From an uncultured Bacilli bacterium (GTDB lineage Bacteria; Bacillota_I; Bacilli_A; RF39; UBA660): 51,917 nucleotides of DNA. The notes under the pieces were generated by a model that saw nothing but the letters and a program-made list of their open reading frames with translations, did no database searches and was not told where the DNA came from. Within the stretch, counting starts at the first letter, position 1. Each line of letters begins with the position of its first letter. Below, in pieces: positions 4,510 through 47,675 of this stretch. The DNA lies in NCBI GenBank assembly GCA_944358355.1, contig CALVQY010000003.1, positions 1 through 51,917 of the forward strand, given 5' to 3'. The position numbers and the translations under genes are program-made.

Positions 4510-5340
4510 CTACTTTACTTTATATATAGTCTCTCTATATAAGAACCCTCTATTATGTCCTGCTAATTCGTCTATTTTTGTTTTATTAAAATTAACAAAA
4601 GCTTTAATTAGTTCTTTATATTGATTACTACTAAATCCTCCTTGTTCTATAATTCCATAGTTAACACCAGAATCTTTTAATTCTTTATAAACATTACTTA
4701 AATTAAGACGTTTATTATAAAAGAAAGTTGTTCCATTGCTATCTTCTTTAACTAAAAACTCTTGCCCACTCTTAGGCTCTTTAATAGTTATTAAATCTTC
4801 TTTCGCTTTATTTTTATTTGCAAAATAACTAGTAAGTAAGCTTCTTCTAGACATAGCGACTACTGGATTACCAAGTAATAAAATAAATAAATCACTTTTA
4901 GTATTATGTCTAATATTAAGTACTTCATCTTTAGTTATTTCATTAGATAGATAGGCTCCTTTTACTCCTAAATCATAATACAAATTAATAGTATCACTGT
5001 TAGTGACCATATGAGTTCCATTATAGATTAAGTTAATAGTTAAATTATTCTCTTTGACTAAGGAGAGTACTGCTAAATCATAGAAGAAGACACCATCTAC
5101 TTTTATATTTTCTAGTTCTTTTAATATATTAAGTAAATCATCTAATTCATTATTAAATATCATTTTATTTATAACAACAAAACATAACTTATTACTTTTC
5201 TTATATTCTCTTATGTCAGAAATACTATAATAATTAAAATAGTCAACAGAAAAATTTTCTAATGGTAAGATGAGTCCATCTAAACTAGTATTTAAATATT
5301 CTAAATAATTATTATCTCTTATTACTCCTAATAACTTCAT
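4510..5340 (-). CDS. Peptidase U32 family protein (YrrN-like partner subunit)
   Basis: VDGVFFYD, LSNEIT and MSRRSLLTSY; lacks the Cys cluster, as YrrN does; lies near the YrrO-like gene. Confidence 0.75.
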   Translation of the reverse strand: MKLLGVIRDNNYLEYLNTSLDGLILPLENFSVDYFNYYSISDIREYKKSNKLCFVVINKMIFNNELDDLLNILKELENIKVDGVFFYDLAVLSLVKENNLTINLIYNGTHMVTNSDTINLYYDLGVKGAYLSNEITKDEVLNIRHNTKSDLFILLLGNPVVAMSRRSLLTSYFANKNKAKEDLITIKEPKSGQEFLVKEDSNGTTFFYNKRLNLSNVYKELKDSGVNYGIIEQGGFSSNQYKELIKAFVNFNKTKIDELAGHNRGFLYRETIYKVK

Positions 5341-5432: not shown

Positions 5433-7142
5433 CTAATTTATTACGTACGGACTACTAGCAGTCCCATCTCCAGACGTAAACCCGTTTTCAGTGGTCACAT
5501 TGATAACTGGACGCAAGGAAAGGTTACTGTTAAAAGCACCTAAATCTGCCAAAAAAGCATTTTCATAATACACTCTAACCATATTTTCATAGCCACCGTC
5601 TTCTGATGATGGTGTCATACTCCAATACCATAAAAATTCATTATCACCTGCAGTTAAATAACTATTACTTATAACTCCTCCAAAGCTTTCTCCTGCTAAT
5701 ACTAACTCATCTGCTGTTATTAATCCTGCTTTTAGTCTATATGAACCACCATAACTTTCACTTGTAGTAGGGCATTTTAAAGTCGGTGTCACATTTTCTT
5801 GCATTTCTAATCCCATCAATTTTCCAAATACTGAAGCTAATCTATCAAAACTTGCAAATACACTTCTTCCCATCATTGTTTCTTCTCTATATCCACTACT
5901 ATCACTACAGAATCTTCCACTACTTACTTTACTATCATAAATACTACTTCCTAAGGCATTTTTATACCAAGTATCTACTTCTCTTTTTATAAATGAATCT
6001 GTTCCATTATCGTAGGTATAACCTGCATACTTTGGATTATCATGCTCTAAATTATAGAAAGTATTCCCAACTGAATATGAATGTGCTAAATCACTATTAT
6101 CAGGGGTTGCACTTGTTCCATTATAGATTAATCTTAAGCTTCCATCTCCATTTACTCTTACTATCTTCCAGTACATCTTATCTCCTGCACTTGCTAACTT
6201 TACTTGAGTACATCCATCTTCATATCCAACATTAGCTTCCCTACAACTTTCTAGACTTTGATAATAAAGCCCATTATTTTCATATACATAATAATCACTT
6301 ACATATTCTCCAAATTGAACATTATTATTTGTTACCGCTCCCCTATAATAATAACTAACACCATCTTCATCATTCATACTATATAGTCCATTAGTCACTT
6401 GACTAGGTTCACTTCCATATTGAGGACCTTCCTCTGTAATTGATGCTATATAACTTCCATTACTTGCATAATTAAACATATTAGTTGTTTCTTCTTGTAA
6501 CTCATTATCTTCAAGTATCTTTTGTGTTGTCAATGGTACATATTTATCTCCTGCTTTTCCATACACATTTATTCTTACACTAAATGTTAATCCTCCTCCA
6601 TCTCCCTGGGGATTATAACTCTCATCTACATACATTCTTAGCCTATAATTATTAGATTCACTAGAGTTCATACTACTTGTATATAAACTCATCTCATTTA
6701 CTGGTCTTCCTGTATAATCATTAGCACTACTCTCTTCATTATATGTCTCAGGTACCATTAAAGCTTCTTCACTACCATCATCTGTTAATCTAATTAGATA
6801 TAACTTTATATATCTACCACCTATAGTATTACCATCTTCTTTTTTAGCACTTATCTCATAGTTGATATTTACATCACCTGTTATTTCACTACTTACACTA
6901 AAGTCAAAATACTCCCCTGGATTTAGTCTTACCATTCCAGTCTTATCAGTAGTTGGTAATGCTCCATTTAAACTTATTGTATTATCTGTTTCAGTATATG
7001 TCATTGTAATAGAACCTGTCGTTATAGAGTTTACTTTACTACCTGTTTTACTATAACTAAAGGCAGCATAACTTACTCCTATTATCGCTAGTATCATTAC
7101 TACTAACACTACTATTATTATAATATTTTCCTTTTTCTTCAT
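5433..7142 (-). CDS. Modular exported surface protein: SipW-type signal, TasA/CalY-like N-domain, variable C-terminal domain
   Basis: Signal ends GVSYA/AF. The first ~195 aa are strongly similar to 44359-45930. The C-terminal region has YYYRG, WKIVRVNGDGSLRLIY, GLITADE, YWSMTP, LRPVIN and GDGT...PY. Confidence 0.75.
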   Translation of the reverse strand: MKKKENIIIIVVLVVMILAIIGVSYAAFSYSKTGSKVNSITTGSITMTYTETDNTISLNGALPTTDKTGMVRLNPGEYFDFSVSSEITGDVNINYEISAKKEDGNTIGGRYIKLYLIRLTDDGSEEALMVPETYNEESSANDYTGRPVNEMSLYTSSMNSSESNNYRLRMYVDESYNPQGDGGGLTFSVRINVYGKAGDKYVPLTTQKILEDNELQEETTNMFNYASNGSYIASITEEGPQYGSEPSQVTNGLYSMNDEDGVSYYYRGAVTNNNVQFGEYVSDYYVYENNGLYYQSLESCREANVGYEDGCTQVKLASAGDKMYWKIVRVNGDGSLRLIYNGTSATPDNSDLAHSYSVGNTFYNLEHDNPKYAGYTYDNGTDSFIKREVDTWYKNALGSSIYDSKVSSGRFCSDSSGYREETMMGRSVFASFDRLASVFGKLMGLEMQENVTPTLKCPTTSESYGGSYRLKAGLITADELVLAGESFGGVISNSYLTAGDNEFLWYWSMTPSSEDGGYENMVRVYYENAFLADLGAFNSNLSLRPVINVTTENGFTSGDGTASSPYVIN

Positions 7143-7180: not shown

Positions 7181-7211
7181 AAAAAGAACAGAATAATACT
7201 ATCCTGCTCTT
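7181..7211 (-). terminator. Intrinsic terminator/attenuator hairpin of leader copy 1
   Basis: AAGAGCAGGATA-GTAT-TATTCTGTTCTT followed by TTT, about 40 nt upstream of the 7142 start codon. Confidence 0.75.
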
Positions 7212-7268
7212 ATATCATAATGAAAGAAAGTATTATTTAAACTACCATTCTGGTAATTTAAGCACCTT

Positions 7269-7379
7269 TTATGCCCCCCCCCAGGTAACACATTGTAAAC
7301 CTGAAGTTTTAGAAAAATGACGAATTAATTTACCCCAGAATTGACGATTTATTTTACCCTGATAAATTGAATTAGCCAT
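7269..7379 (-). CDS. Leader peptide uORF copy 1 (36 aa, ...GLQCVTWGGA*); the +1 frame extends to 7199 ending TFFHYDIRAG*
   Basis: SD AAGAAAGGAAG before the ATG; G9 tract at 7274-7282; homologous uORFs start at 28361 and 46087. Confidence 0.65.
   Translation of the reverse strand: MANSIYQGKINRQFWGKLIRHFSKTSGLQCVTWGGA
7274..7282 (-). repeat. G9 homopolymer tract in leader uORF
   Basis: ccccccccc on the + strand, in very AT-rich DNA. Confidence 0.95.
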
Positions 7380-26711: not shown

Positions 26712-28115
26712 TTGATTACTATGGTCTCATATGATATGACCAAAACACCAGTTGTTAATGTAGTAGATGATATAATCGCTAACGCCTCAAAAGCCGGGGC
26801 TAGTGATATACATTTTGATCCAAGAGAAAATAGTCTGATGGTAAGAATAAGAGTAGATGGTGATTTACAAGATTATACTGAAATACCTAAGATTTATGAA
26901 AGAAATTTAATTACAAGAATAAAACTAATCGCTAATATGAATATAACTGAAAGTAGGCTTCCTCAAGATGGATCTATAAAAGGAACTATAAAAGGAATAA
27001 ATTTAGAGACACGTGTATCAACCCTACCTACTAATGAAGGTGAAAAATGTGTTATACGTATTCTTGATTATTCTAGAAGTTTACAAGGAATTGACACTTT
27101 AGGGTTTAATGAAGATAATTTGAAAAAATTAAAGAAAATGATCGCTGAACCTAATGGTATTATCTTAATAACAGGAGCGACTGGTAGTGGTAAAAGTACT
27201 ACTGTTTATTCTATTTTACAAGTATTAAATAAAAAAGAGACTAATATTATAACTGTAGAAGATCCAATAGAAATGAATCTTGAAGGATTAAATCAAGTAC
27301 AAGTAAATAGTGAAATAGGACTTGACTTTGCTACTGTTTTAAGATCTATTTTAAGACAGGACCCTAATGTTATTCTTATCGGAGAAATTCGTGATAGTGA
27401 AACTGCTAAAATAGCGGTACGTGCTTCTATAACAGGACACTTAGTATTATCTACAATCCATACTAATAACTCTTTAAGTACAATTGAAAGATTACTTGAT
27501 ATGAATGTTGAAAGATATTTGTTATCTAGTGCTTTATCTGGTATTATATCGCAGAAGCTTGCAAAGAAGGTATGTCCACATTGTAGATTAAAAGAAGAAA
27601 CTACTCCTTATCAAAGGAAAGTATTTAAGCTTGCTTTAGATAAAGATGTTAATTATATATATAATGCTAATCCTAAAGGGTGTGATAAATGTAATAACGG
27701 TTATCATGGTCGTATTGCTATTCAAGAAGTATTGATGATTAATGATGAGATTAGAAGTGCACTAAATGAAGAAAGTTTAGAAAAAGAAGATTTAAATAAA
27801 TTAGTATATAAATCTGATGTTATTACTATGTTACAAGATGGATTATTAAAAGTTTTAGATGGTTCTACTACTTTTGATGAGATATACAAGATTATTGATG
27901 TGGATGATGACTTAGATATTTATTGTAAGATTAGAGATATAGAATATAATGAGAATAATGACAATAATGACAATAATGACAATAAAGATGTAGAAGAAAA
28001 AGAAGAAGTCAAAGATGAAAAGAAAGAAAATGATATCAATATAAGTACGGATGAAGAAGTTAATACTCCAATAATTCAAATACATAATATAACTAAGGAA
28101 GATGAGGTATTATAA
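26712..28115 (+). CDS. GspE/PilB/ComGA family pilus assembly ATPase
   Basis: ASDIHF, RLPQDG, GATGSGKS, LRQDPNVILIGEIRD, TGHLVLSTIH and CxxC...CxxC; acidic tail. Confidence 0.92.
   Translation: MITMVSYDMTKTPVVNVVDDIIANASKAGASDIHFDPRENSLMVRIRVDGDLQDYTEIPKIYERNLITRIKLIANMNITESRLPQDGSIKGTIKGINLETRVSTLPTNEGEKCVIRILDYSRSLQGIDTLGFNEDNLKKLKKMIAEPNGIILITGATGSGKSTTVYSILQVLNKKETNIITVEDPIEMNLEGLNQVQVNSEIGLDFATVLRSILRQDPNVILIGEIRDSETAKIAVRASITGHLVLSTIHTNNSLSTIERLLDMNVERYLLSSALSGIISQKLAKKVCPHCRLKEETTPYQRKVFKLALDKDVNYIYNANPKGCDKCNNGYHGRIAIQEVLMINDEIRSALNEESLEKEDLNKLVYKSDVITMLQDGLLKVLDGSTTFDEIYKIIDVDDDLDIYCKIRDIEYNENNDNNDNNDNKDVEEKEEVKDEKKENDINISTDEEVNTPIIQIHNITKEDEVL
27954..27983 (+). repeat. 9-bp tandem repeat (AATAATGAC) x3 encoding NND
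   Basis: Seen directly in the 3' end of the ATPase gene. Confidence 0.8.
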
Positions 28116-28237: not shown

Positions 28238-28268
28238 AAAAAGAACAGAATACACTTATCCTGCTCTT
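28238..28268 (-). terminator. Terminator/attenuator hairpin of leader copy 2
   Basis: AAGAGCAGGATA-AGTG-TATTCTGTTCTT followed by TTT. Confidence 0.7.
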
Positions 28269-28310
28269 ATATCATAATGAAAGAAAGTATTATTAATGTT
28301 TAAACTATCA

Positions 28311-28361
28311 TTACAATAATTTAAACACCCCAGTAACATATTGTAAACAAATTCTCCTCAT
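28311..28361 (-). CDS. Leader peptide uORF copy 2 (MRRICLQYVTGVFKLL*); the +1 frame extends to 28256 ending TFFHYDIRAG*
   Basis: SD AAGAAAGAAGG; G tract reduced to G4 (28328-28331). Confidence 0.55.
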   Translation of the reverse strand: MRRICLQYVTGVFKLL

Positions 28362-42892: not shown

Positions 42893-43154
42893 CTACATAA
42901 GCTTTGCTATTTGTTTTTTAGATAACCCAGTTAGTTCACTAATTAGAGGTATATCCATTTTTTTAGCAAGCATTGATTTAGCAATAGATTTCTTCTCATT
43001 ATTAGCACTGTTTTTTACAACTTTTTTTAATACCTTCTTTCTCTCCTTCTGCTTTAAGACTATTCATCATCTTTTCATTTTCTTCTGCTTCATCATAAAG
43101 ACCTACTGTATTAATATCTAAACTTAATCTTTTTAATTCATTAGCAACTTCCAT
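42893..43154 (-). pseudogene. Second, frameshifted copy of the Rpn C-terminal module (RpnS-like) with a different tail
   Basis: MEVANELKRL...EGIKK, then a +1 shift near the A7 run (43022-43028) to ...ANNEKKSIAKSMLAKKMDIPLISELTGLSKKQIAKLM*. Confidence 0.75.
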
Positions 43155-43435
43155 TAATTCAACATCTCCTTACCTAAGATTTACTACTTGTTTTTTTGAA
43201 AGGCCTGTATATTCACACACTTTAGGAATAGGTAATCCATCTTTAAGAAGATTCTTAGCAATAGATTTTTTCTCATTATTAGCGCCTTTTTTGATACCTT
43301 CTTTCTCTCCTTCTGCTTTAAGACTATTCATCATCTTTTCATTCTCCTCTGCTTCATCATAAAGACCTACTGTATTAATATCTAAACTTAATCTTTTTAA
43401 TTCATTAGCAACTTCCATTAATTCAACATCTCCTT
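43030..43435. repeat. 142-bp direct repeat (43030-43171 and 43294-43435) with 2 mismatches
   Basis: Direct comparison of the two segments. Confidence 0.9.
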
Positions 43436-44054
43436 CCGCTATTCTCTCTATTTCATCTATTTTTCTTAATCTTAATATTAACATTTCTTTTTCTAGTTTA
43501 CTAAGTTCTAATCCTTTTTTATACTTCTTATAAACTTTCTTAAAACTTAAATGGTATTTTTCCCATTTTACACTTTCTACTACCCCATTTTCATCTCTTG
43601 ATTTAAAGACTTCTTTTACATTCTTCTTATTAAGATGATTAAAATTATTTAAATTTATCTGTATTGCTTTTGGCATATTCTCATAAGTATAATTTTTATT
43701 AGATATATCTATTTTTATTTTATCTAAGTAATCATCATTTCTAATTATAGTCGCTAAACTATATCTATTGTTTAACTCATAGTTGATAATGTAACCCTCT
43801 ATACCAAATAGTATATCAGATCTTTTTCCACGTTCTAAAGCGTTACTTATAACAAATTCCGTATTCTTTTCATAATAAGTTTTAAGTATTAAATCTTTAG
43901 GTATATCAGTTATCCTGTAAGTCATATCTGCTTTAAAAAGCAAACAATTAGTCATAATAGATTTATAAATATAATCATTACTGGCAGAAAAGACTTCTCC
44001 CTTTTCTTGTAACTCTTTTATTCTTTCTTCTGGAGTCTTTTTTGACGATTTCAA
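43170..44054 (-). CDS. Rpn family / PD-(D/E)XK nuclease (PDDEXK_2-like)
   Basis: ND..YK, KRSDIL...IINYELN and AIQINLNNF; C-terminal EG.KEG.KKG...IAKNLL..G.....V..YTGLS. Confidence 0.75.
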   Translation of the reverse strand: MKSSKKTPEERIKELQEKGEVFSASNDYIYKSIMTNCLLFKADMTYRITDIPKDLILKTYYEKNTEFVISNALERGKRSDILFGIEGYIINYELNNRYSLATIIRNDDYLDKIKIDISNKNYTYENMPKAIQINLNNFNHLNKKNVKEVFKSRDENGVVESVKWEKYHLSFKKVYKKYKKGLELSKLEKEMLILRLRKIDEIERIAEGDVELMEVANELKRLSLDINTVGLYDEAEENEKMMNSLKAEGEKEGIKKGANNEKKSIAKNLLKDGLPIPKVCEYTGLSKKQVVNLR

Positions 44055-44358: not shown

Positions 44359-45930
44359 TTATACATAAGTAAAGTCAGTTACTCCACTATCTGCAATAGT
44401 AGAATTAGGTATAGTCCAAGTATCTCTTGTTACAAGTATCTCTGTTATGTTAGCCATATCATTAAACATTGTATTATAACTCGTTACTTTAGAAGTATCA
44501 AAACTTGTTAAATCTAAGTGAGTAAGATTCTCACAATGCTGAAACATCTGGGACATAGAAGTAACATTCGAAGTGTCAAAGTTACTTAAGTCTAAATCTG
44601 TTAAACTTCTACAGCCATAAAACATTTGAGACATTATAGTTACTTTATTTGTATTAAAGGAACTAACGTCTAAATTATTTAAATATCTACAATATGAAAA
44701 CATCATTGACATATTAGTAACATTTGAGGTGTCAAAATTTTTTCCAAATACTACTTTTGTTAAAGACATATAAGTGTTACTTGAAAACATACTGCCAGAA
44801 AACATCATTGACATACTAGTAACATTTGAGGTATCAAATGAACTTAAATCTAATACTGTTAAACTTCTACAATCATAAAACATCATTGACATATTAGTAA
44901 CATTTGAGGTGTCAAAATAATCACTAAAAATTATATTGTTTAACAATTTATTACCTGTACCAAGCACAGCAGATCCAACAGATCCAAACATAGAAGACAT
45001 ATCAGTAGTTAAACTTGTATTCAAATAACTTAAATCCATTGTAATACAATTGGGAAAGCCATCAAAATATTGTTGCATATTAGTATTAGCAATTATACTA
45101 CCTTCTCCACCTATTGTTACTTTATATGTTCCAGCACCTGTTCCGTCATCTTCTATATATGCTATTACACTTTCATTTTGTTTCTCTGATATATCCCAAC
45201 TTTCTATTACTCCTTCTGGTATTATTGTATCGCCTTTTGTTACTATACTTGTTATTTTACTTTTATATTCATCAGTGTGAAAGTCACTAGGATTACTGGA
45301 ATCATATGCCATCATCATTCTATCTTCCATGGATAAGCCATCTTTTCCATAGACATTTATTTGTACTGAAAAAGTAAGATTTCCTCCATCTCCTTGTGGA
45401 TTATAATCTTCATCTACATACATTCTAAGTCTATATCTATTACTTTCACTAGAATTCATACTACTTGTATATAAACTCATCTCTCCTGATGGACGTCCTG
45501 TATAACTATTAGTAGTACTCTCTTCACTATATACTCTAGGTGTCATTATTTCTTCTTCACCATCATCTGTTAATCTTGTTAGATATAACTTTATATTAGA
45601 ACCATCTATTGTTCCATTACCTACTTCTTTAGCACTTATTTCATAGTTAATATTTACATCCCCTGTAATAGTACTACTTACAGTAAAATCAAAATATTCT
45701 CCAGAATTTAATCGTTTTTTTCCTGTCTCATCAGTTGTTGGTAGGGCTCCGTTTAAACTAATAGTATTACTACTTTCTTCATAACTCATTGTAATAGAAC
45801 CTGTTGTTATTGTATTTAGCTTAGTTCCTTCTCCTGTAAATCTAAAGGCTGCGTATGATACTCCTAACACTGCTATTATTAATACTACCATTAATCCTAA
45901 TATTACTACTTCTTTCTTTTTATTTACCAT
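44359..45930 (-). CDS. Modular exported surface protein: SipW-type signal, TasA/CalY-like N-domain, BspA/DUF285 leucine-rich repeats
   Basis: GVSYA/AF; N-domain shared with 5433-7142; repeats of LDLS.FDTSNVT.MS.MF..C..L. Confidence 0.85.
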   Translation of the reverse strand: MVNKKKEVVILGLMVVLIIAVLGVSYAAFRFTGEGTKLNTITTGSITMSYEESSNTISLNGALPTTDETGKKRLNSGEYFDFTVSSTITGDVNINYEISAKEVGNGTIDGSNIKLYLTRLTDDGEEEIMTPRVYSEESTTNSYTGRPSGEMSLYTSSMNSSESNRYRLRMYVDEDYNPQGDGGNLTFSVQINVYGKDGLSMEDRMMMAYDSSNPSDFHTDEYKSKITSIVTKGDTIIPEGVIESWDISEKQNESVIAYIEDDGTGAGTYKVTIGGEGSIIANTNMQQYFDGFPNCITMDLSYLNTSLTTDMSSMFGSVGSAVLGTGNKLLNNIIFSDYFDTSNVTNMSMMFYDCRSLTVLDLSSFDTSNVTSMSMMFSGSMFSSNTYMSLTKVVFGKNFDTSNVTNMSMMFSYCRYLNNLDVSSFNTNKVTIMSQMFYGCRSLTDLDLSNFDTSNVTSMSQMFQHCENLTHLDLTSFDTSKVTSYNTMFNDMANITEILVTRDTWTIPNSTIADSGVTDFTYV

Positions 45931-45966
45931 TTTTACTCCTCCTCCATTATTTTTTTTCTACACATC

Positions 45967-45997
45967 AAAAAGAACAGAATATAATTATCCTGCTCTT
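45967..45997 (-). terminator. Terminator/attenuator hairpin of leader copy 3
   Basis: AAGAGCAGGATA-ATTA-TATTCTGTTCTT followed by TTT, 36 nt upstream of the 45930 start. Confidence 0.75.
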
Positions 45998-46039
45998 ATA
46001 TCATAATGAAAGAAAGTAATTATCTTACTATTTCTATGT

Positions 46040-46087
46040 CTAAACTGCCCCCCCCCAGGTAACAAGTTGTAAACAAATTCTTCTCAT
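46040..46087 (-). CDS. Leader peptide uORF copy 3 (MRRICLQLVTWGGAV*); the +1 frame extends to 45985 ending TFFHYDIRAG*
   Basis: SD GAAAGAGGG; G9 tract at 46048-46056. Confidence 0.65.
   Translation of the reverse strand: MRRICLQLVTWGGAV
46048..46056 (-). repeat. G9 homopolymer tract in leader uORF
   Basis: ccccccccc on the + strand. Confidence 0.95.
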
Positions 46088-46112
46088 TTTTTAACCCTCT
46101 TTCTCATTATCT

Positions 46113-46658
46113 TTATCTTGTTTGTTCACCAGTTATTCTAAGTTTTCCTTTCCATACTTGACCACCAAAGTCTCCATCTATTTCTACTGTTGGCCAAACT
46201 CTTAAAACATAACTGTTTGTTTCATTACTTGTTAGAGTTCCTTGATCTAATATTCTAGAACCATCTTCTCCTAATGTCTCTAAATATTCTGCTGTTCCTA
46301 CACTATCATTTTTATCTAAGCTATATTTCAAATACATTTCATCCAACTTAACATCAGGAGATGTTATTTCTATATCATCTAAATAAATAACATAATCTGC
46401 TGTAGCAGTACCTGTATTTTCTAATGTAAAATCATAACCATCTAGTGCTAGACCGTCACTATCTGTCAAAGGATAAGTATCTACTAAATTAATAGTGTTG
46501 CCTTCAGTCAAGTTAAGTTTTAAAGTACCTGAAGTAATTACATTTTCTCTTTGACCTTCTCCTAAGAACCTAAAGGCAGCATATGATAATACTATTATTA
46601 TAATTATTAATGCTACTAGTAAGACAACTAACATTATTTTATTTCTTTTCTCATTCAT
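46113..46658 (-). CDS. Single-domain TasA/CalY-like exported protein (SipW-type signal)
   Basis: LSYA/AF...N.ITSGTL, FTLENTG and Y.LRVW...FGGQ.WKG.L.I; SD AGGTGA before the ATG at 46658. Confidence 0.7.
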   Translation of the reverse strand: MNEKRNKIMLVVLLVALIIIIIVLSYAAFRFLGEGQRENVITSGTLKLNLTEGNTINLVDTYPLTDSDGLALDGYDFTLENTGTATADYVIYLDDIEITSPDVKLDEMYLKYSLDKNDSVGTAEYLETLGEDGSRILDQGTLTSNETNSYVLRVWPTVEIDGDFGGQVWKGKLRITGEQTR

Positions 46659-46724
46659 ATTCTCACCTACATTATATATCAAGTATAGCATTAATAAATA
46701 TTTCTTTCAATAAATTTTTAATTT

Positions 46725-47675
46725 TTAATTTAAACTACTTTTAGTAATTGTCTTTATCTCTTTATTATCAACTTCAAAGCTTATAGTATTAACATCATAA
46801 TTTGCAAAGACAGAGTAACTAAGTGTATATAATACTTCTTCTTTAAGAATGCTAGTACTATCAAATAAAGCACTATTAAAATTCAATATGAATAAATCAC
46901 TATCTACTATTTCTTTATCTATTAACTCCACATTTTCATTTAAGATACTTCTTAAGTTATCTTCATATATGTAGCTTGTTGTCAACTCTTCTACTATTAT
47001 ATCAATTTTATCTTTATTGTCATTATTATTTATATATTTAGTAACTGGTACATAATATATATCTTCATCTATATCTTCACCATAAAATATAACAACTTTG
47101 GTAATATTATCTAAAGTATTATAAGTATATTCATTATTAATACCAATATCTCTAGTTAGAGGTAAAGTTATTTTCTTATTACTATTTGGATATGTTTCTA
47201 AAGGAAGAGAATCTACTTCAATATTTACTTTAGTAATATTATCTAGTTCTGTTATAGAATAGACAATCGCTTCTATTAATTTAACTGATAAACCTTCATC
47301 TATATTTAATAGTTCTTTAGAAAAATCTAATGTAACTAAATCATTATCTACTGTAATAGTTTTTAATTTAGTATTTTTAGGAATAATAGCTTTTAATTGA
47401 TCAGGGAATTTACTTTCATTAGTAATTGTTAAGTTATTGATAATACTTTTAATATTATCTTCTATTTTTTCATTATCTAATAATACTTTAGTTTTAACTA
47501 AATAATTATTATCATCTAATAAATAGATTGATGAGTTAGCAAGATCTGTAATGTATTCAAATTCTAAGTTAGTCTCAAGTGTTTTTTCTGTTAATGGAAT
47601 TAGATAGATAGTCATAATAATGAATAGACTCATAGTTGTAATAAATATTTTTCTTAAAGCTTTTTTTCTTAGCAC
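46725..47675 (-). CDS. gerM: GerMN-domain spore germination protein GerM-like
   Basis: IYLLD.N.YLV, VTLDFSKE, EAIVYSITE...V.I.VD and YYVPVT; tandem GerMN layout; next to gerE. Confidence 0.8.
   Translation of the reverse strand: MLRKKALRKIFITTMSLFIIMTIYLIPLTEKTLETNLEFEYITDLANSSIYLLDDNNYLVKTKVLLDNEKIEDNIKSIINNLTITNESKFPDQLKAIIPKNTKLKTITVDNDLVTLDFSKELLNIDEGLSVKLIEAIVYSITELDNITKVNIEVDSLPLETYPNSNKKITLPLTRDIGINNEYTYNTLDNITKVVIFYGEDIDEDIYYVPVTKYINNNDNKDKIDIIVEELTTSYIYEDNLRSILNENVELIDKEIVDSDLFILNFNSALFDSTSILKEEVLYTLSYSVFANYDVNTISFEVDNKEIKTITKSSLN

Follow-up and report, generated by a model that had tools for sequence, protein, structure and literature searches.

The poly-G/C contingency loci of Campylobacter jejuni, Neisseria and Haemophilus carry G runs of about 8-11, in which changes of +/-1 switch expression and G9 is a common resting length. 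In Clostridioides difficile cwpV a phase-variable element between the promoter and the surface-protein gene decides whether a leader terminator forms, there by site-specific DNA inversion. In other leaders the position of the translating ribosome decides the fate of a terminator (pyrBI, trp) or of a helix that masks a Shine-Dalgarno (SD) sequence (ermC). In the sources considered, the only proven case of phase variation by leader peptide and terminator is a pair of pilus loci, pil1 and pil3, in one streptococcus, Streptococcus gallolyticus. For pil1 the logic was proven by mutation of the start codon, by added stops and by deletion of the terminator, all of which acted as predicted (Danne et al. 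2014, PMC3894217). In the portion of that paper considered here, the short peptides stop 39 bp before the terminator in UCN34 and at least 28 nucleotides (nt) before it in other low-expressing isolates, and the long ones run into the hairpin or past it before they end. A full-text literature search, which returned mostly titles and the opening lines of abstracts, gave only the S. gallolyticus work for such a mechanism and nothing on it in Onthousia, and the parts of a recoding review (PMC5009743) that were covered mention no such switch. The present analysis concerns a window of 51,917 nt (contig CALVQY010000003.1 of assembly GCA_944358355.1, from an uncultured Bacilli bacterium) and within it a cassette at about 46 kb, which stands on the minus strand between the gene for a secreted protein of 181 amino acids (aa) and a gene for a surface protein with PARCEL/DUF285 repeats. 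We read the cassette as a phase-variable leader-peptide attenuator, at 46 kb one that lies inside an operon, with a probability of about 0.6; switching in populations and read-through into the gated gene would follow from the anatomy and by analogy with pil1.

An earlier sequence-only reading had placed a leader with a G9 tract between the 181-aa subunit gene and the DUF285 gene, with a shifted frame ending in a hairpin, immediately after the upstream stop and without room for a separate promoter. When the coordinates were read all of this proved to be as described, the leader ATG (46087-46085) lying only 25 nt past the TAA (46115-46113) that closes the 181-aa gene. The features of the site, in which ORF denotes an open reading frame, are as follows.

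46682..46710, minus strand: promoter-like site of the 181-aa gene, TTGAAA-17-TATACT with TG before the second hexamer, 10/12 matches, a consensus match only
46113..46658, minus strand: gene for the 181-aa secreted protein, a stand-alone N-terminal domain of the gated family (30% identical to the 523-aa protein within residues 1-188 of the latter, E 6e-16)
46095..46105, minus strand: Shine-Dalgarno-like GAGAAAGAGGG of the leader ORF, 7 nt 5' of the ATG, read from the sequence
46040..46087, minus strand: leader ORF as assembled (G9, OFF), 15 codons, MRRICLQLVTWGGAV and stop
45985..46087, minus strand: span of the long leader ORF under G8 or G11, ending in WGGQFRHRNSKIITFFHYDIRAG and stop (TAA 45987-45985)
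46057..46074, minus strand: near-invariant 18-nt motif GTTTACAA-NNN-GTTACCT, abutting the tract, in the frame L-Q-x-V-T-(W)
46048..46056, minus strand: G9 tract, the proposed slippage site
46003..46019, minus strand: CU box UUACUUUCUUUCAUUAU, 5' strand of the flanking helix P1, in the long frame as T-F-F-H-Y (minimum free energy (MFE) fold and covariation)
45967..45997, minus strand: intrinsic terminator from the terminator scan, 12-bp stem, 4-nt loop and T5, AAGAGCAGGATA/ATTA/TATTCTGTTCTT
45933..45950, minus strand: P1 3' strand AUAAUGGAGGAGGAGUAA, containing the entire Shine-Dalgarno of the PARCEL gene (fold, duplex energy and covariation)
44359..45930, minus strand: the gated gene, for a 523-aa surface protein with the family N-terminal domain and PARCEL/DUF285 leucine-rich-type repeats (Pfam, NCBIfam)

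The long frame of the leader is reached with one G fewer or two G more than the assembled G9, and its TAA straddles the arm-loop boundary of the hairpin, with two bases at the end of the 5' arm and one at the start of the loop. Within 45700-46900 the terminator is the one terminator-like site (0.1 expected), and it is specific to the minus strand because its stem contains G-U pairs. The PARCEL gene starts (45930) 36 nt beyond the T run, and between the hairpin and this start, where by the sequence-only reading a separate promoter would refute the gate, the promoter-like site scan found none on the minus strand. The gate within an operon that the same reading had proposed fits all of the sequence evidence, the 181-aa gene having a promoter-like site of its own, the best on the minus strand in that scan, and the gene-leader-gene order recurring in other genomes at loci L040, L138 and L047; its action as a gate is kept here as a proposal.

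The cassette is conserved among its copies with the frame maintained. The copy set consisted of 118 non-identical cassettes from the fetched loci and the genome, and a terminator (hairpin and T run within 160 nt) was present in 109 of them. In 107/109 copies one frame of the three, and only one, was open from the tract to a stop at the hairpin, as against 32.8/109 expected when the intervening 37-77 nt were shuffled, a comparison that is not a probability because the copies share descent, with intervening sequences and lengths that are diverse. This single open frame runs for 37-77 nt and the first base of its stop falls between -8 and +4 from the start of the loop, whereas in the two closed frames every early stop (217/217) leaves 21 nt or more (median 31) between its end and the 5' arm. 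In 108/118 copies a start codon in frame with L-Q-x-V-T-W(-G-G) is present together with an SD-like word, and the leader part that precedes the motif varies from 2 to 29 codons in length. The central NNN triplet of the motif showed 19 variants and 0 stop codons in 110 copies, where the position frequencies, by our own arithmetic, predict about 13 stops. Start and SD conservation, the avoidance of stops and the maintained frame together argue that the leader ORF is translated. The peptide past T-F-F-H tracks the sequence of the hairpin (YDIRAG, SVKRIE, YGLKE, HTIRTG), and therefore the conserved feature is where translation ends and not a protein.

Past the T run, the stretch that carries the SD of the next gene (45950-45933) has a sequence complementary to the CU box (46019-46003). 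In the predicted fold of read-through RNA of the 46 kb copy the two form a 17-bp P1 around the terminator (free energy, dG, -25.6 kcal/mol, z -4.6, 0/200 shuffles as stable), and P1 was found in the MFE fold of 5/6 copies, the exception being the first copy of the window. Over 76 distinct copies the duplex of the CU box with the SD region came to -13.6 kcal/mol, compared with -7.8 when the CU region was shuffled, and was lower in 75/76; type II 5' strands paired better with a 3' strand of their own kind (-12.0 vs -8.4), whereas type I showed no preference. A covariance model was made from 5 seeds, and 91 matches were aligned to it and scored. Of the cells 91.1% were paired as against 81.8% in shuffles, and the covariation score was 0.344 compared with 0.186 for shuffled alignments (0/500 reach 0.344) and 0.035-0.067 with slid partners, all in an alignment that was fitted to the model structure and hence favours pairing. 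Terminator and P1 both covary: 24/33 pairs were altered on both sides, across the terminator and flanking helices, and the terminator stem (helices 7-8) was 95-98% paired with 8/12 pairs changing on both sides. RNAalifold on 75 MAFFT-aligned copies gave no pairs, the hairpin variants being misaligned, and the covariance-model alignment was used instead; on 20 short leaders RNAalifold paired the G run with CUUUCUUU of the CU box, where every column is invariant and covariation is thus uninformative. Rfam gave 0 matches at the gathering score over the whole window, and at E up to 10 just L20_leader (18 bits, gathering 58.7) and SSRC34 (17.8 bits, gathering 64). A ribosome translating the ON frame would pass through the CU box, which is part of the long leader frame, and so would open the terminator and P1 alike. 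In an unpaired spacer between the terminator and the P1 3' strand lies an A8 run (45950-45957, minus strand), a second homopolymer that differs between samples, being 1 base shorter in the X5 and X7 run contigs and 2 shorter in the X6 contig.

Tract length differs between assemblies. Among the 118 copies G9 was found in 75, G10 in 24, G11 in 8, G8 in 7, G7 in 2 and G6 and G13 in 1 each. The window holds three copies with a common 3' block, and its only G runs of at least 8 (0.04 matches expected from shuffles) are those of the two intact ones, at 7274-7282 and 46048-46056, both exactly G9 as the sequence-only reading had it. Ten of the 109 copies were assembled in frame (ON), at G8, G9, G10, G11 and G13, and 8/10 of these had the canonical ..FFH.. 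ending; the 99 OFF copies, spread over G6-G11, divide into 70 that need one G fewer (60 of them G9) and 29 that need one G more. Flanks were compared over 120 nt upstream and 200 nt downstream, in pairs of loci from different consensus assemblies of metagenome-assembled genomes (MAGs), and where they were at least 98% identical 4/5 pairs differed in tract length. In one such comparison L042 has G9 (OFF) and L078 has G11 (ON) with flanks that are 100% identical. At L040, where the order of 181-aa gene, leader and gene is kept and the upstream protein is 81% identical, the tract is G8 and in frame (MSLQYVTWGGQFNSKIVTFFHYDIRAG), while L043, with flanks 98%/93% identical to those of the first window copy, has G10 and is also in frame. 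The sequence-only reading had left a default OFF state and programmed slippage side by side as explanations of G9. Heritable phase variation is favoured over fixed recoding because the tract differs at near-identical flanks, in-frame alleles exist and the shift needed is not uniform.

In the mechanism that we propose, transcription from the promoter of the 181-aa gene would enter a short translated leader ORF bearing the G tract. With the tract OFF (G9 or G10) the ribosome would halt at one of two conserved early stops, at G9 the UAG at 46042-46040, 42 nt before the hairpin, and the terminator would then form; any RNA that was read through would fold P1, burying the Shine-Dalgarno of the PARCEL gene. 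With the tract ON (G8 or G11) the ribosome would continue across the CU box, enter the hairpin through its 5' arm and stop at the top, both the terminator and P1 would be blocked, and the downstream gene would be transcribed and translated. By analogy with S. gallolyticus pil1 we infer that the ON frame relieves termination and unmasks the SD. Slipped-strand changes of the tract at replication would cause each copy to switch heritably and randomly, and with a dozen or more cassettes per genome a population would show varying sets of surface proteins.

A number of points weigh against the attenuator. Transcription in Bacillus subtilis is reported to outrun translation, which would weaken ribosome-mediated antitermination. 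The covariation comes from the structure-fitted alignment described above. Copies in the ON state number 10/109 where about 36 would be found if states were random, and the 60/99 OFF copies in one configuration would fit a programmed shift, or strong selection for OFF, as well. The tract differences could partly be homopolymer error of short-read consensus; some of the MAGs have about 10x coverage by record title; the contigs of four sequencing runs were short and broken around the cassette, and one record (X5) spans the tract gap-free with no indel listed there. Missing mismatch repair as a driver of slippage was rejected: MutS and MutL are both encoded in the genome, so that slippage is not raised by a defect in repair. 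In 83/109 copies the downstream start is 21-39 nt past the T run and in one it is more than 200 nt past it, 4 lack a downstream gene, and in the other 21/109 the spacer between terminator and gene is 61-200 nt; 14 of these have a promoter-like TTGATA, 17 nt, TGnTAAnAT/TAnnnT after the terminator, and there the gate is therefore incomplete. In copies with such spacers read-through could add to the spacer promoter or interfere with it. They lie on contigs C11, C22, C36 and C87 of the genome itself (G000) and at 17 loci in other genomes. The last such point is the nucleotide-level invariance of the 18-nt motif, which the attenuator model leaves unexplained: each of the 15 fixed positions is identical in 104-110/110 copies, third codon positions included, and the rare codon ACC is found in 103/110.

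Two further readings bear upon this invariance. The first is that the 18-nt motif and the G run are a dedicated signal, either for programmed slippage, such that a copy OFF at G9 would still yield a set small ON share, or as the target of a switching or cassette-exchange factor. This we regard as unlikely; if true, it would mean genome-wide programmable surface variation with a double lock before a dozen to about 30 surface-protein genes and phage tail genes, in a gut lineage with a reduced genome. The second, programmed recoding, seems to us distinctly unlikely. It holds that the tract is fixed in the DNA and that a set fraction of RNA polymerases, or of ribosomes at the rare GGG codons, reaches the long frame, in which case the cassette would set a constant low downstream output and would not be a heritable switch. 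A G9 tract is as long as the RNA-DNA hybrid of transcription, G9 is the modal length (75/118), the same change is needed by most OFF copies (60/99), the ON fraction among assemblies is low (10/109) and the flanking motif is invariant at the nucleotide level, as recoding signals often are. However, the shift required is mixed (70 OFF copies one G fewer, 29 one more, over G6-G11), alleles at five tract lengths (G8, G9, G10, G11 and G13; 10/109 copies) are already in frame, loci with identical flanks have unequal tracts, and a search for an RNA partner of the motif found no consistent one (dG -5.8 vs -7.6 for the shuffled motif). These points argue against programmed slippage as the sole mechanism; as an extra layer it is possible and would not be exclusive of phase variation.

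The attenuator also has to be weighed against three other explanations. It is very improbable that the small ORF is an independent gene, for a secreted or regulatory peptide, with the hairpin merely its terminator beside surface-protein genes. Many copies do have their own promoter-like site, SD and terminator, 61-200 nt separate 21/109 from the next gene, and the second window copy has no downstream gene at all, but conserved residues are limited to L-Q-x-V-T-W-G-G and T-F-F-H, with anything from 2 to 29 residues in the N-terminal part and C-terminal residues that follow the hairpin sequence, 99/109 copies are out of frame, and P1 covaries with the SD of the next gene. Hardly any credence can be given to the pre-hairpin block as a promoter, with TGATATAAG as extended -10 and the G tract altering the spacing to an upstream activator site. 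The block of the window copies reads TATGATATAAG, like TGnTATAAT, and GTTTAC-N5-GTTAC resembles a direct-repeat binding site of the kind of response-regulator boxes; yet the -10-like word is lost in other copies (TAGTGTAAAAAG, TAATGTAAGAAG, TATGGCTTAAAAG), the distance from tract to block ranges from 37 to 77 nt without helical phasing, the site scan gives no minus-strand promoter-like site there, and the covariation supports an RNA helix. That the Trp-Gly-Gly(-Gly) codons sense charged tRNA, in a metabolic attenuator of the trp or his type, is barely conceivable, for although the tract reads as rare GGG glycine codons following a Trp codon, an alternative antiterminator hairpin was looked for and none was found, the assembled-frame stop right after the tract frees the terminator whether the ribosome is stalled or not, and the gated genes encode surface proteins and not biosynthesis. 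The independent peptide, the promoter in the CU box and amino-acid sensing were rejected on these points.

The genes on either side of the leader belong to one family of secreted proteins. No Pfam or NCBIfam match was found for the 181-aa protein. In a search with its AlphaFold2 model (mean predicted local distance difference test score, pLDDT, 77) the best of 48,161 chains was the TasA fibre 8aur_A (Z 8.2, root-mean-square deviation 3.3 over 130 residues; next match Z 7.0), and three matches to TIGR02228, the SipW-type (archaeal-type) signal peptidases, were above cut-off on contigs C6 and C34. On the other side, the Foldseek top 50 in the PDB contained no TasA and only weak beta-sandwich matches, and PF12389 (Peptidase_M73) at E up to 10 matched neither the 181-aa protein nor two N-terminal domains; an Atlas cluster (score 0.97) in which 54% of the members carry PF12389 is a lead only. 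The description of the subunit as TasA-like in the sequence-only reading thus finds an echo in the fold and the peptidases and none in Peptidase_M73, and the model hints, weakly, that the protein may be a TasA-like beta-sandwich.

The 523-aa product of the gated gene matched Pfam DUF285 (E 1.3e-34, 118.9 bits vs cut-off 25) and, in 4 stretches, the NCBIfam PARCEL repeat TIGR02167 (157.4 bits vs cut-off 30). It and the 569-aa gated paralogue are 71% identical over the N-terminal 198 aa and divergent beyond. Proteins downstream of the cassette nearly all share a signal-anchor N-terminus, with a basic stretch, a membrane-spanning segment and (S/T)YA(A/M/Y)F; a crude pattern for this N-terminus found 20 ORFs in the genome (about 4 false), and the cassette stands upstream of 8. 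The region directly downstream of the PARCEL gene (window 43012-44054) holds a 294-aa ORF with a sub-threshold match to the Rpn family of recombination-promoting nucleases (40.6 bits, cut-off 52.1), and two 160-nt direct repeats that are 95% alike, at 43012-43171 and 43276-43435.

The two other copies of the window are the following.

7181..7379, minus strand: copy 1, with leader MANSIYQGKINRQFWGKLIRHFSKTSGLQCVTWGGA and stop at 7379-7269, G9 at 7282-7274, CU box at 7233-7217 and terminator at 7211-7181, read from the sequence
28238..28361, minus strand: copy 2, decayed, with the tract GGGGTG and with CU box and terminator intact (covariance model R1, 36.9 bits)

Copy 1 stands before the gene for the 569-aa paralogue (5433-7142). 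Copy 2 has no same-strand gene downstream; the next gene, for a T2SSE-type ATPase (26712-28115), is convergent, and copy 2 can therefore serve only as a terminator for the 109-aa gene upstream of it.

In the genome (1.50 Mb, 27% G+C) 10/11 G/C runs of at least 7 are preceded by GTTTACAA-NNN-GTTACCT, an association of tract and motif that is more than chance. All exact occurrences of the motif are followed by a G run or its remnant, there are 12 copies of the cassette, and a 27-mer from the 3' block is found exactly at 6 sites. The sole G/C run of at least 7 outside the cassette is a C8 at G000:C50:2453-2460. The motif with at least G7 was found in 22/36 other genomes of the genus, with a maximum of 32 matches per genome, and in 0/24 genomes from 23 other genera. 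A scan with one genome per species gave at least 110 stretches, and the matches listed all came from MAG records titled uncultured Bacilli, Tenericutes, bacterium or Candidatus Onthousia. Metagenome scans with a locus-specific pattern (variable gap over the tract) and with the motif carrying the CTT triplet of the 46 kb copy gave no match, and the cassette was not found in a viral-contig scan. Contigs of related MAGs often end 30-270 nt from the motif (for example with matches at 27-51, 61-85 and 102-126). As the cassette is multi-copy and contigs end near the motif, it is a frequent assembly break point in the genus, and it accounts for many of the contig breaks in its MAGs.

Individual copies show departures from the common plan. 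The copy at L001 (G000:C2, about 4755-4900) precedes a family gene of 454 aa; an interruption of its tract (TGAGGGGGG) creates an in-frame TGA immediately after V-T, and the copy looks like a locked-OFF allele. A diverged copy, L157 (G000:C7, 4060-4195, minus strand), has ACA in place of ACC and G10 and lies within a prophage tail module, with a 656-aa ORF on one side, small ORFs toward a tail-fibre gene on the other and a tape-measure gene upstream; in its fold a CU-rich stretch pairs with the SD of the next gene around the hairpin, with a z of only -1.2. Long-type leaders, at window 7300-7379 and elsewhere, start MANSIYQGKI(I/N)RQFWGKLIR.. and contain a near-repeat, GKIxRQFWGKLIRx, whose copy number and frame vary among them. 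The leader at G000:C11:1490 crosses the motif in another frame and at G10 is in frame to the hairpin.

The sequences point to a cassette that has spread, in a chicken-gut genus of uncultured Bacilli, over a whole family of genes for secreted fibres and adhesins. If the attenuator reading is true, cells with a 1.5-Mb genome would display differing subsets of tips on a common TasA-like domain, which would be a route to immune or phage evasion and to niche sampling. It would also follow that pipelines for the annotation of MAGs miss such regulation entirely, and that the cassette, at about 150 nt, would be a compact, portable stochastic switch for Gram-positive synthetic biology.

Compared with known systems, the cassette is like the poly-G/C contingency loci in having G runs in an A+T-rich genome that are confined to surface-structure genes. 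It is unlike them in that their tract lies in the coding region of the regulated gene or in a promoter spacer, whereas the present tract is part of a separate leader ORF and would act through a terminator and SD masking. In contrast to pyrBI, trp and ermC no metabolite or antibiotic would be sensed, the input being a heritable change of frame, and an antiterminator hairpin would be unneeded. As in cwpV, the formation of a terminator in the leader RNA would be under phase variation, but through a leader peptide and without DNA inversion. The closest likeness is to pil1 and pil3, as far as the covered portion of PMC3894217 describes them. There, as here, a leader ORF with a simple repeat and then an intrinsic terminator stand before a surface-appendage operon, the short peptide ends well before the hairpin (here by 21 nt or more, with a median of 31), the long peptide reaches into the hairpin and stops there such that the ribosome blocks the terminator (here proposed), and most cells or alleles are OFF. 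The likeness drawn here is one of logic, and the same logic appears to have arisen independently, by way of a homopolymer and with a translational lock added. Five things would set the cassette apart from pil1 and pil3, as judged from the sequences: the repeat is a homopolymer of G6-G13 where theirs is GCAGA x 13-23; there is one ON frame in three, where out-of-frame changes in pil1 generally gave long peptides that ended within or after the hairpin; a second lock is present in the covarying SD-masking helix, to which nothing similar was found in the portion of PMC3894217 considered; the cassette is multi-copy, with 12 copies here and a maximum of 32 motif matches in a related genome as against two loci in S. 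gallolyticus; and the 46 kb copy is placed inside an operon and not at its head.

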